Source: Flaccisagitta enflata (lineage: Eukaryota). Taken from it: a stretch of DNA of 64,000 nucleotides. Of this stretch, positions 4,988 to 55,100 are shown in pieces. The stretch spans positions 42,594,001-42,658,000 of the forward strand of contig OZ231126.1 in NCBI GenBank assembly GCA_965153355.1, read 5' to 3'. The notes below the pieces were generated by a model, which ran no database searches, was not told the DNA's origin, and saw only the letters and a program-made list of their open reading frames with translations. Position numbers and translations under genes: made by a program. The number at the start of each line of letters is the position of its first letter. Positions within the stretch are counted from its first letter, which is position 1.

Positions 4988-7900
4988 CAGAGGAGGTTAA
5001 TGGGTTTGGGCGGGGCACCGAAACTGCGGAAAGGTCGGAACAGGAGAGCAGAACAGTTTGGTGAAAGAGACCAGAAAGGTCAAAACAAGGAGGAAAATTT
5101 CCTATACTTCGAAAAAAAGGAAAACATGACATGAGGAGAAAGAAGAGAAAGAAATTGAAATGAAAACAAGGTCGAATGCACTCCCCCCCCACCCCGTCAC
5201 GGACGGGTGGGCCGTATCAGAAAACCTTGAAAAATCGACTGACCAGCCGACCAACCGACCGACCGACCGACCGACCGACCGACCGACCACAGCAAATTAT
5301 AAAGTCACTTGTCCTTGATTAAAAAAGCATACTTCAATACCACACTCGTTGAAACCCTTTTCAATCAATTGTTGTGATGACACATTCAACTTCAACCATT
5401 CACATATACAACGCCAACCTCCCAGACTGCCAAATTGTAGAGATGACAGAAACATGACAATGTCTGATATAGGTCATGAGCGTATGTGTCATTTAGTAAC
5501 ATGATATACTAGCAAATGAGCAAACACTATTAATCGCGCAACATGTGGAGATCTGGAGGTTGATTTGTGACGAAATTGATCTCCTCTTAAACTCCAAGGG
5601 AGGGGGTGGAGGCTCAGGTTTGGTATTATCCAGTGGGTTATGAATTTTAGGGGGTGTCTTCTACCATAAAATGGTGCACATAGACAGCGAACATAAAGGA
5701 TCTAAGCACATCGAGTCAAATGCCCCCGAGCTGATCTGGAAGCTGTCTTTGTCTTTGACAATCAATAACCATTCCTTTTTTGAAAAGCGTCTATAAGATA
5801 TGCACCTCAGTTTGAAACCACTTTCAGTCCCGGCACCATTTCAAACGTTGCCTCTCACTTCTCTCGGTTTCCCAGCTTTGACTCTCCTAACGACCATGAA
5901 GGTCCCCCAAATGATTTTCCCCAACTTTTTTGGCGGAGGCGATTTTCTTTTATTGTCATTACGACTTTGACCATTTGCAAACCGGAGGAGATGAAAAACT
6001 GAAAGGGAAAGAGACAAAGAGATAGACAATGAGGGGGAAAGACCAGTGAGAGAGAGAGAGAGAGAGAGAGAGAGAGAGAGAGAGAGAGAGAGAGAGAGAG
6101 AGAGAGAGAGAGAGAGAGAGAGAGAGAGAGAGAGAGAGAGAGAGAGAGAGAGAGAGAGAGAGAGAGAGAGAGAGAGAGAGAGAGAGAGAGACAGACAGAC
6201 AGACAGAAATAGAGACAGACATAGAGACAGACACACAGACAGACACACAGACACACAGACAGACACACAGAACGATAGACAGACAGACACAGACAGACAG
6301 ACAGAAAGACAGACGAACAGACAGACAGACAGACAGACAGACAGACAGACAGACAGACAGACAGACAGAAAAAAAGACAGAAAAACAGACAGACAGACAG
6401 ACAGACAGACAGACAGACAGACAGACAGACAGACAGACAAACAGACAACCAGACATTGGTAAAGACAGAGAGGAAGGAAATTGAGTGACAGAATGGGATG
6501 GAGACGGAGTCATAGTCAGAAATAAAGACTGAGAAAGGCAAATAGAAGACGGAGCCAGAGATAGTTACAGGGACAGAAGGATAGAGTGAAAGTACAGAAA
6601 GAAAGTAAAGGAGAAGGAAGAAAAATAGTGAGAAAGCGCGATCGCAGGAAGAATGCTTTTTTTGCGGAATGAGGTGGTAAGGAATAAAAAAAACGTTGAG
6701 AATCATTGGCTGGCCCCTTTTCTTCTCTCAGAGCTGCCCATTCTTCTTCCAAAATCACTTGCTGAGGTTTTTCCACGACGTCCAAGAGAACCAAAGAAAT
6801 CAACCAACTCCTTTTTTTTTCTTTTTTTTCTTTTCTGTCGTCTTCTTCTTTCTCTTTTCTTCTTTATCTTTTCTTTTTCAACCCTTTCCTAACATGCCTA
6901 AAATCTTTTTTGCTCTTTGTCCTTTTTTCTTTTCCTTACTCTTTTCTTCTATACCTTACATTACTCGTCCCATACCTAACATGCCCAAAATCGTGTTTTT
7001 CTTTCTTTTTTAACTCTCCTTCATTTCTCACCTTTTGTCCGAAGTATTGTTCATTTATGTTGCTCTTTGCGTGGTAGGACATAACCGGGCAATTTTGGAT
7101 AGAGCATTAGGCCATTTCTTGGCCTTGCTTTTGTCTCTTTTTGTTTGTTTATCATATTTCTTCGTTCATTTTTCTCTTCAAATAAGGGCTCTAGAATGTC
7201 GGAATAAAGCTGCATGGACCAATATTGAACGGGTCTATGAAAAACGCCTCTACGGCGCAAGAATCACAACGGGAACCGTACGATTTGATGAATGATCGTC
7301 CTCTTTTCCATTCTTTCTTTGTCTAATGTCTATTTCTTGTATCCACTTCATCTTGTCTTTTTCAGCCATGACAGCGCCAATGGTCGTGTCAGCTTATCAT
7401 TTATCTTTCTCAACCTCACTTTTCTCGCTTTCTGACCATCAAATAAATGTATCTTCCTAAGAAGCCAACAACAAATGGGCAGCGCCAAAACGAAGTAGCG
7501 GCCAAAGGAGTAAAAAAAAAGAATAGTACCTTTTGTGATAAAACAAAAGAGCTGTCAAGGCCGAGGAAAAACAAATATATAACATGAGCGCAAGCAAAAG
7601 AACAATCGTTGTATAAACAAACCCGAACAGGGGAAGGGAAAGAAAGGAAAGGGAAATTGTTCGCGATAGGCTGTCCGAAAACAAGTATTCCCATAGCAAA
7701 AAAGGGGGAGTGTCAGATCTCTTCCATGTGGAAAGATACACCGCTGATCAAGGTCTCAAAAGGGGATCATTAGAAGGGAAAGAAAACAAGTTCGTTTTGT
7801 CGACTGCGAAGTCGGTCGCGTTGAAAGCCAAATACATGTAAAACTTTTATGGTAAAACGCGCACATTTAATCCTCAAGTCCAAAGAGACCCCCTCTGGCC

Positions 7901-8150
7901 CAGAATATGACGAAAAAGAGGCACATAAATAATCTTGATATTGAACCGACCGATGGACCAACGTACCACAAAGAAACTAGTCAAGTGGCAAAAGACGATA
8001 TTGAACCAAAGGAAAGACTTTGCTATGTCGGTTCGTCCGTCCGTCCTTCCGTCCGTCCGTCCGTCCATAATATCTTTGAAACATAGTATTTTTTTCTTTT
8101 TTTAAGACTTTAGGTAATTATTAGGTATATAGGTGTGAGATACTGTTTCA

Positions 8151-52106: not shown

Positions 52107-55100
52107 CTCTTTTGGCCGCTACTTCGTTTTGGCGCTGCCCATTTGTTGTTGGCTTCTTAGGAAGATACATTTATTTGATGGTCAGAAAGCGAGAAAAGTG
52201 AGGTTGAGAAAGATAAATGATAAGCTGACACGACCATTGGCGCTGTCATGGCTGAAAAAGACAAGATGAAGTGGATACAAGAAATAGACATTAGACCAAG
52301 AAAGAATGGAAAAGAGGACGATCATTCATCAAATCGTACGGTTCCCGTTGTGATTCTTGCGCCGTAGAGGCGTTTTTCATAGACCCGTCCAATATTGGTC
52401 CATGCAGCTTTATTCCGACATTCTAGAGCCCTCATTTGAAGAGAAAAATGAACGAAGAAATATGATAAACAAACAAAGAGCCAACTTGCTCTATCCAAAA
52501 TTGCCCGGTTATGTCCTACCACGCAAAGAGCAACAGAAATGAACAATACTTCGGACGAAAGGTGAGAAATGAAGGCGAGTTATAAAAAGGAAGAAAAACA
52601 CGATTTTGGGCATGTTAGGTGAGGGACGAGGAATGTAAAGTATAGAAGAAAAGAGAAAGGAAAAGAAGAAAGGACAAAGAGCAAAAAAGATTTTAGGCAT
52701 GTTAGGAAAAGGGTTGGAAAAGAAAAAAGAAAGAAGAAAAGAGAAAGAAAGAGACGACAGATAAAAAAAAAAAAAAAAAAAAAAAAAAGGAGTTGGTTGA
52801 TTTCTTTGGTTCTCTTGGACGTCGTGGAAAAACCTCAGCAAGTGATTTTGGAAGAAGAATGGGCAGCTCTGAGAGAAGAAAAGGGGCCAGCCAATGATTC
52901 TCGACGTTTTTTTTTATTCCTTACCACCTCATTCCGCAAAAAAAGCATTCTTCCTGCGATCGCGCTTTCTCACTATTTTTCTTCCTTCTCTTTTACTTTC
53001 TTTCTGTACTTTCACTCTATCCTGTCCCTGTAAGTTTCTCTGGCTCCGTCTTTTATTTGCCCCTCTCAGTCTTTTTTTCTGACTCCGTCTCCATCCCATT
53101 CTGTCTCTCAGTTTCCTTCCTCTCTGTCTTTACCAATGTATGTTTGTCTGTTTGTCTGTCTGTCTGTCTGTCTGTCTGTCTGTCTGTCTGTCTGTCTGTC
53201 TGTCTGTCTGTCTATCGTTGTCTGTCTGTCTGCCCGTCTGCTCCGTTCTCTCTTCAGCCTGTCTATCGTTTTGTCTGTTCGTCTACGTTCCGTTCTGCCC
53301 GTCTGTCTGTCTGTCCGTTCGTCTGTCTGTCTCTATGTGTGCTCCCTTTATTTGCCCTTTGTCTGCTGGCCCTCTCTTATGTTGGTTGGTCTCTCTCTAT
53401 CTCTATCTCTGTGTCTCTGTGTCTCTCTCTCTCTCTCTCTCTCTCTCTCTCTCTCTCTCTCTCTCTCTCTCTCACTGGTCTTTCCCCTTCATTGTCTATC
53501 TTTTTGTCTCTTTCCCTTTCAGTTTTTCATCTCCTCCGGTTTGCAAATGGTCAAAGTCGTAATGATAATAAAAGAAAATCGCCTCCGCCAAAAAAGTTAG
53601 GGAAAATCATTTGGGGGACCTTCATGGTCGTTAGGAGAGTCAAAGCTGGGAAACCGAGAGAAGTGAGAGGCAACGTTTGAAATGGTGCCGGGACTGAAAG
53701 TGGTTTCAAACTGGGGTGCATATCTTATAGACGCTTTTTACAAAAAAGACATGGTTATTGATTGACAAAGACAGCTTCCAGATCAGCTCGGGGGCATTTG
53801 ACTCGATGTGCTTAGATCCTTTATGTTCGCTGTCTATGCGCACCATTTTATGGTAGAAGACACCCCCTAAGATTCAAGACCCATTTGATGATACAAAACC
53901 TGGGCCTCCACCCCCCTCATTTGGAGTTTAAGAGGAGATCAATTTCGTCAGAAATTAACCTCCAGATCTCCACATGTTGCGCGACTAACAGTGTTTGCTC
54001 ATTGCTGGTATATCATGTTACTAAATGACACATACGCAACCACCCTCGGTAGGCCATCACCAAAAGGTGTAAGAACTTCTGATGCTTAAGTCCTGGGTGT
54101 ACATAGGTAAAAAAAAATAAAACTGGATTTTTTGCTCTTCCCCCTTCATAGGATTACAATGGAAAGTTACTCATTGATTTTTAAAAAACGCATTATTTAG
54201 TATTGCCACAAAACTATAGGAGGTACAATTATAATGAAACCTGATTAAGAAAACCTTAGAGTTTCCTCTACATATTTCAGTAATAATATTGTCTTATTTT
54301 GATTGAAATAAGCCTCACCGAGCGATTTAAGAGCGCTGTAACCCCCTCCCCCCAAATAAAAAAATCAGCCCAAATTGCGATTGGTATTTTACATACTAAC
54401 CATTACCCTTCATTTTAACCATTACCCTTCAAACTAACCATTATCCTTTATACTAACCATTACCCTTCATATTTTTCATTTTCTTCTTTGGACAAAATCG
54501 GCTATCTCAGCTTCCATAGCCAGTCCAGGTGATTACATAGTGGGCAATTACTTCCGGTCAAGGTGTCATTCTATGGCTGTTAATATCAAACATATAGTAT
54601 CTAGTAAGAAAAAATGTTTCGGTCCATTTTTGGCCTAAAAGTGCCCTCTGAGGTCATGAGAAAGTTCGGCCTACAGTGAATGGTACAGCATTTATGAATG
54701 TATTTCTTTTGTGATTAAGTATGCAATCTTTGATACCTCGCATCGCAGCAACTTAGGAAATTCATCTAACATTTATTTAAAGCTTTAACTGGTAAATTGA
54801 CCTTTAGAAAGTCATATTTCTTTGTAGAAAAATATGCCCAGATGGAGAAAGTTTTGTTTTTCCGAGCTATGTTGAGATACGAGCATATAGATGAATACGG
54901 AATTGGGACTGACTATCTATCTACGTCAGGATTGCGAGTTGGAGGACAATTCATTTATGAGGATACGAGGCAGTGCTTGCGGGGGTTTGGTGAGTTCTCT
55001 CTTTATCATCATCATTTACCGATGCGTCGTTTTTTGTGTTTCGAGTCTCAGTTTTGAGCCTCATGATCACTTATTAGAGAGTGTATCATTAGTAGGTAGC

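Follow-up and report, generated by a model that had tools for sequence, protein, structure and literature searches.

A long inverted repeat in the Flaccisagitta enflata assembly probably consists of two alleles of one non-coding locus

Two inverted arms around a spacer

The window analyzed here is a stretch of 64,000 nucleotides (G000:C1:42,594,001-42,658,000) of the Flaccisagitta enflata genome assembly, which amounts to 794 Mb in nine contigs and is rich in microsatellites. It contains a large inverted repeat, two arms around a spacer, that an initial annotation had described as colinear reverse complements with sharp ends (5480-19395 and 38094-54037) and had interpreted mainly as an old inverted segmental duplication. 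The same structure was recovered by comparing the tandem-repeat-masked window with itself by BLAST, 26 of the 58 rows forming a single collinear minus-strand chain from 5480/54037 to 19395/38094. Arm 1 (5480..19395, forward strand) is 13,916 bp long and non-coding, with 35% tandem repeat, and arm 2 (38094..54037, reverse strand) is its reverse complement, with 15,944 bp; they are probably alleles 1 and 2, respectively, of a single locus, here called A. The spacer between them measures 18,698 bp. The ends of the arms are sharp to the level of a single base. As already pointed out in the initial annotation, there is no target site duplication (TSD) at the outer ends, where the longest flanking direct repeat was of 2 bases with 3 bases of slack allowed. 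The window does not contain any N, and hence, there is none at any of the joins.

Three pieces of the arm (5480-6047, 9180-11140, and 17940-19395) were searched against the whole genome, and among the 40 candidates scored in each search, the only full-length matches were the two arms. With no third full copy, the possibility that the arms belong to a dispersed element was discarded. No arm-length match was present in the 150 kb on either side of the window, and inverted matches shared more widely by the two flanks involved nothing but dispersed repeats. The adjoining sequence is locus specific both to the left of arm 1 and where arm 2 meets the spacer. The tetranucleotide CATG occurs one base beyond each end of arm 1; the left one was considered a coincidence, as no element terminus was found there.

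In a global alignment, the arms differ by 294 substitutions (176 transitions and 118 transversions) in 7,863 columns outside tandem repeats, i.e., 3.7%. Divergence is uneven (chi-square 98, 38 degrees of freedom, p = 3e-7), with ca. 7-8% at both ends and ca. 3% in mid-arm; if only the inner end is set apart, the values are 7% there and 3.3% for the remainder. The longest identical runs reach 195-239 bp. There are four inserts private to arm 1 and four private to arm 2, some of them with clear target duplications. Those of arm 1 are located at 8921..9180, with a 9-bp direct repeat on both sides, and, from the alignment of the arms, at about 11316-11815, 16071-16271, and 17669-17951. Those of arm 2 are found at 44427..44841, with terminal inverted repeats and TA flanks, and, from the same alignment, at 46869-47085, 50108-51121, and 51553-52104. 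A 90-bp minisatellite has 8.6 units in arm 1 (10027..10798, forward strand) and 13.7 in arm 2 (47096-48331). Among the candidates scored, no copy of it lay outside the arms, and direct reading of its consensus unit revealed stops in all six frames.

Pfam scans covered arm 1, its left flank, the spacer, and a small part of the right flank; the frames of arm 2 were not scanned separately. Arm 1 with its left flank supplied 92 open frames, and there were another 79 (77 from the spacer and 2 from the right flank). None of them had a family reaching the curated cut-off, which bears out, for the frames scanned, the lack of a transposase stated by the initial annotation. Genes in the arms or the spacer were therefore rejected, all the Pfam matches being subthreshold and of low complexity. 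Rfam and ARAGORN, run over the window, gave no match and no tRNA. A stretch of 195 bp identical between the arms (13138-13332) includes what may be a 62-bp exon (13237-13298) with a donor-like GTAAGT after it, a weak candidate judged from its sequence. There was no sign of double-stranded RNA (dsRNA): a single RNA read, from ca. 6% of one polyA run, mapped to 36850-38400, the only stretch considered for this purpose. Because no gene was found in the arms, nothing has been shown on which inversion toggling, gene conversion, or dsRNA, all of them evoked by the initial annotation, could act.

Spacer and joins

Next to arm 1 lies the left 1.5 kb of a dispersed element (19397..20911, forward strand), its terminus only one base past the end of the arm and its right part missing. 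Other copies of this element, referred to here as the CATG element, measure 1-4 kb and have CATG at start and end. Its right end was not found in the window or within 150 kb on either side. The element is non-coding, with a short hairpin near its left end, and no target duplication was visible in the two copies checked. At 20908-20911, both the CATG element and a small repeat are truncated. From there, the bulk of the spacer (20908..36466, forward strand), cut on the left within the small repeat and ending on the right at the terminus of a high-copy element, is collinear with G000:C7:15125507-15136590 over 11 kb, with 4.3% substitutions and many extra insertions in the spacer. This common backbone, the other end of which was not found, could represent a non-autonomous transposon of very large size or a flank transduction. 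Nested inverted-repeat elements were detected in the spacer at 24840-30590, 26584-28099, and 29154-29755, one of them with 21-bp subterminal arrays. The last part of the spacer (36467..38093) is locus specific, includes two small repeats, and is spanned by short-read contigs. Positions 36850-37265 are single copy, and no second match to 37850-38093 appeared among the best 40 of 66 candidates.

On the other side, arm 2 ends at 54037/54038 against a 27-kb block that is also present in C4 (G000:C4:81670710-81697869). The C1 copy extends from window coordinate 54038 to 80982 (54038..64000, forward strand, within the window) and ends inside a tandem array. It begins in mid-body of a high-copy repeat, the other copies of which run on for at least 1.3 kb. 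Within the window, the copy is mostly >99% identical to C4, near-identical stretches alternating with garbled ones, and the scrambled patches are in the C1 copy. Two of the joins are thus odd, those at 20908-20911 and 54037/54038, and the missing halves of the four cut repeats did not turn up in the 150 kb to the left or to the right. This region also harbors a 4.6-kb element (55087-59688) with terminal inverted repeats, which we take to be CACTA-like, and an internal 71-bp array, with relatives on C4, C6, and C1, as well as an LTR (long terminal repeat) retroelement (61446-69890) with long open frames and 545-bp LTRs that are 94% alike.

Garbled sequence beside the odd joins

The patch at 20090..20750, close to the first of these joins, shows dense clustered private differences from family copies that are concordant among themselves. 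Within 20090-20500, we counted 61 private substitutions (35 of them clustered) and 12 indels, the corresponding figures for two other family copies being 3-4 and 1. At 54050-55080, next to the second join, there were 45 + 50 private substitutions versus 0-6 in other copies. The sequence looked normal in the initial 470 bp of the CATG element, in element stretches at three other places of the spacer, and in two of the inserts in the arms. Along the C4 block, clean stretches have 5/1,800, 3/900, and 1/2,879 differing columns, and garbled ones have 115/900 and 252/1,200. An internal palindrome of the block indicates which of the copies is altered, since 136 of 335 columns are mismatched between its two halves in C1, as compared with 53 of 404 in C4; the garbled copy is that of C1. 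A separate subfamily behind the odd bases at 54052-54076 was ruled out, as the pattern occurs only once in the genome. Garbling of this kind is typical of a thinly supported noisy long read that has been patch-corrected with short reads. The altered sequence at 20090-20750 and from 54038 onward thus suggests, as far as the letters themselves go, that both joins are poorly supported.

Short-read contigs across the inner end of arm 2

Nine runs containing this DNA were listed, and they seem to point to a marine animal. The read evidence comes from four of them, mainly as short-read contigs, over 36850-38400, in which the arm is represented by its inner 307 bp; runs X4-X8 (shares, 0.07-0.15) are not used. 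Sample X1 probably represents the individual that was assembled, or one close to it, and so is not independent; it may be a pool. X2 is another sample from the same study, and X3 is a wild metagenome. In X1, a contig of 225 letters is identical to 38015-38239 and crosses the join between spacer and arm 2. X1 matches both arms exactly, records 6 and 7 corresponding to arm 2 and record 8 to arm 1, with all 9 substitutions and a 2-base gap; the arm-1 bases of 19134-19280 are exact in a short-read contig. Both arm sequences, therefore, exist in DNA. At 38305-38357, the depth in X1 was 47 for the arm-2 version and 59.5 for that of arm 1 (107 in total). The end of the spacer, a single copy in the assembly, has two versions in X1 at five places (summed depth, 160-209) and one version at two places. 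The sum for the arms compared with that for the spacer gives no doubling, bearing in mind that contig depth does not equal copy number, and X1 shows no third version of A among its contigs. The second spacer version of X1 has four variants in common with X2, and its aligned part goes no further than 38093, exactly where the spacer gives way to the arm. Had this been a plain bubble, it would have closed 12 bases later, at 38105.

A single X2 contig spans 37922-38400 with 22 differences. It runs through the join between spacer and arm, and the same four spacer variants are present in it. In the same contig, the arm-1 base is found at 38243, 38305, 38311, 38330, and 38331, and X3 has it at four of these five sites. 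Over most of 38094-38400, X2 presents a single arm version. The join between spacer and arm 2 is, hence, crossed by contigs in two samples, and the inner end of the arm normally adjoins the spacer end (36467-38093, read backwards). According to the initial annotation, half depth on each arm with no molecule crossing the inner junctions would indicate a misjoin. That test needs amending, because one of them, 38093/38094, is the normal adjacency and is indeed crossed, and the odd joins are those at 20908-20911 and 54037/54038. In eight listed contigs of X2 and X3, located in and next to the end of the spacer, 84 of 1,875 letters (4.5%; range, 2.2 to 7.4%) depart from the assembly, and a difference of 2-7% between sample and assembly points to a very polymorphic species.

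A probable false heterotype duplication

Taking all this together, we believe that the arms are probably the mother's and father's alleles of one gene-less locus of 14-16 kb (A), both retained in the primary assembly, i.e., a false heterotype duplication. False duplications are among the commonest assembly errors (10.1101/2020.05.22.110833; 10.1101/729962). The initial annotation had mentioned two haplotypes joined head-to-head by the assembler as its second option, which is now the better-supported one. The differences between the arms are of the allelic type: their 3.7% compares with 4.5% between samples, and within the inner 307 bp, arm-1 bases are found on the spacer-linked copy of X2. An old age for the structure is unsupported because the divergence of the arms falls within that found between samples.

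Under this explanation, haplotype 1 would be made of the left flank, A1 (the version of arm 1), the CATG element, and the spacer end, and haplotype 2 would have A2 directly followed by the spacer end, without the CATG element. The sharp inner end of arm 1 would then be a transposon insertion polymorphism. A CATG element between A1 and the spacer end would account for the sharp end at 19395, for the second spacer version ending at 38093, and for the mixture found in X2. The assembly path may have followed haplotype 1 into the CATG element, jumped at 20908-20911 to the opposite strand of haplotype 2, and gone back through the spacer and A2, to exit at 54037 into the poorly supported copy of the C4 block and resume at ca. 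80983. The jumps would most likely come from chimeric or mis-anchored noisy long reads or from a flipped contig with gaps filled by raw reads. The 27-kb block present in C1 and C4 is probably a second false duplication. If the explanation favored here is right, this part of C1 (ca. 5.5-81 kb in window coordinates) contains twice both ca. 14 kb of allelic sequence and 27 kb of interchromosomal sequence, and no long inverted repeat of the assembly should be given a biological interpretation until it is supported by reads.

Several observations weigh against a false duplication. Those described are usually tandem with a gap (10.1101/2020.05.22.110833), and here there is no N gap. The unflipped order could not be shown because the halves of the cut repeats were not found within 150 kb. 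A tile-wise garbling filter gives support but no proof, as it is not specific. Besides 14 of 38 C4-block tiles and 2 of 15 from the spacer (tile 35251 narrowly missed being a third), it picked out 6 of 39 in the far flanks, and no arm tile was testable. A real, very recent duplicate can also be left noisy where reads map to two places. In X1, the two arm versions (47 and 59.5) have about half of the per-version depth of the spacer (79-117), which is predicted by neither model, and further unlisted contigs lift the depth to 184-228 at 38243-38268. Record 6 of X1 is unbroken through 38173-38239, where the arms are identical, and among the contigs listed, none is of the arm-1 type for 38117-38172. 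It should be noted that contigs drop variants, apart from the caveat on depth already made, that the reads cover only the inner 307 bp of the arm and neither odd join, and that the listing leaves out 56 variant rows and 760 loose-end rows, together with the loose letters of X1's other spacer version. The shared arm-1-type bases could also be ancestral states.

Alternative explanations

All the candidate explanations are known kinds of thing, and the favored one is not a feature of the chromosome. A real and recent duplication-flanked inversion seems unlikely. In it, a switch of template from one homologue to the other would have turned L-A-S into L-A-inverted S-inverted A, and 27 kb templated on C4 would have been inserted at the far join. 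The arms would have been born 3.7% apart and with eight insertion differences, copied from different haplotypes. The arrangement has exactly the topology expected when an inversion duplicates one of its flanks (PMC1885836), and complex insertions with duplications and template switching have been described in people (PMC5120786). In the assembly, which has no gap, inverted copies of non-repetitive sequence do flank the segment on both sides, and the joins are sharp, with repeats cut in mid-body and 0-2 bases of shared sequence. However, X1 has neither a third version of A nor a gain in depth (with the reservation that contigs drop variants), and the ancestral order could not be reconstructed, as the search for the other halves of the cut repeats within 150 kb to the left and right did not find them. 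Besides, differences of 10-25% are clustered beside the joins, whereas the other copies of elements in the spacer are clean. Such values are far above what error-prone repair synthesis leaves. A simpler version, a real duplication-flanked inversion in which the spacer end was once joined to 54038, was dropped, since the block at 54038 copies C4 and no cut repeat is completed nearby. Were the recent event true, arm divergence could not be used to date a duplication in very polymorphic animals, and this would be a wild-invertebrate case of a chromoanasynthesis-like event, from one germ-line replication accident.

The main proposal of the initial annotation, an old inverted segmental duplication, here understood as fixed in the species and followed by later insertions and patchy gene conversion, has become weak, and we hold it to be distinctly unlikely. 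The eight arm-specific inserts, some with clear target duplications, and the uneven divergence along the arms are what it would leave, and inverted duplications of 8-60 kb with 85-99% identity flank inversions in the herring (PMC11499932). On the other hand, the single arm version of X2 mixes arm-1 bases with the spacer join, arm-1-type bases being located, in this other sample, on the spacer-linked copy. The divergence of the arms equals allelic divergence, an element terminus precisely on the breakpoint would require chance, and the adjacent C4 block is almost undiverged and garbled. A transposon with the arms as giant terminal inverted repeats, or a palindrome derived from whole-genome amplification or a fold-back read, has the shape in its favor, and amplification yields inverted chimeras that enter assemblies (PMC6218980). 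Yet the arms have no TSD, no transposase family, and no multicopy ends, and a fold-back copies one molecule, while the differences between the arms are clean insertions and substitutions rich in transitions, and short-read contigs contain both versions. This last option is largely refuted and highly improbable. Chimeric reads may have caused the two odd joins. If the structure were real, it would belong to an already known type of rearrangement, located in non-coding DNA, and its interest as an example of a duplication derived from two haplotypes would be modest.

Comparison with known systems

Sex-chromosome palindromes kept by gene conversion have near-perfect identity between arms and genes in them. 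The arms described here reach an identity of 96% and differ by eight insertions, and no gene was found in them. Neither their identity outside tandem repeats (96.3%) nor the scans made, without Pfam, Rfam, or tRNA matches, fit a palindrome of that kind. The likeness is in the long arms around a spacer (arm lengths in PMC6218980). Inversions with an inverted duplication at one breakpoint, as described for staggered breaks (PMC1885836) and for the herring (PMC11499932), are closer, in that inverted non-repetitive copies flank a segment and one of them keeps its normal neighbor. The duplications reported are of up to about 1.9 kb in Drosophila (PMC1885836) and 8-60 kb in the herring (PMC11499932), and what sets our case apart is the allele-type differences between the copies and the low quality of the joins. 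Complex insertions by template switching (fork stalling and template switching [FoSTeS]/break-induced replication mediated by microhomology [MMBIR], chromoanasynthesis), in the cases presented in PMC5120786, also combine a local inverted duplication with a block from another chromosome and have joins that are blunt or almost so. Sequenced junctions and a gain in copy number confirmed those cases, whereas this one is known from assembly sequence. Compared with the false heterotype duplications described in 10.1101/2020.05.22.110833 and 10.1101/729962, our copies have opposite orientations, lie 18.7 kb from each other, and lack an N gap, and half depth is not cleanly shown. In common with them, there are two divergent versions of one locus adjacent to each other, with variants at the level of haplotypes, two versions and not more in the reads, and a poor consensus at the boundaries.

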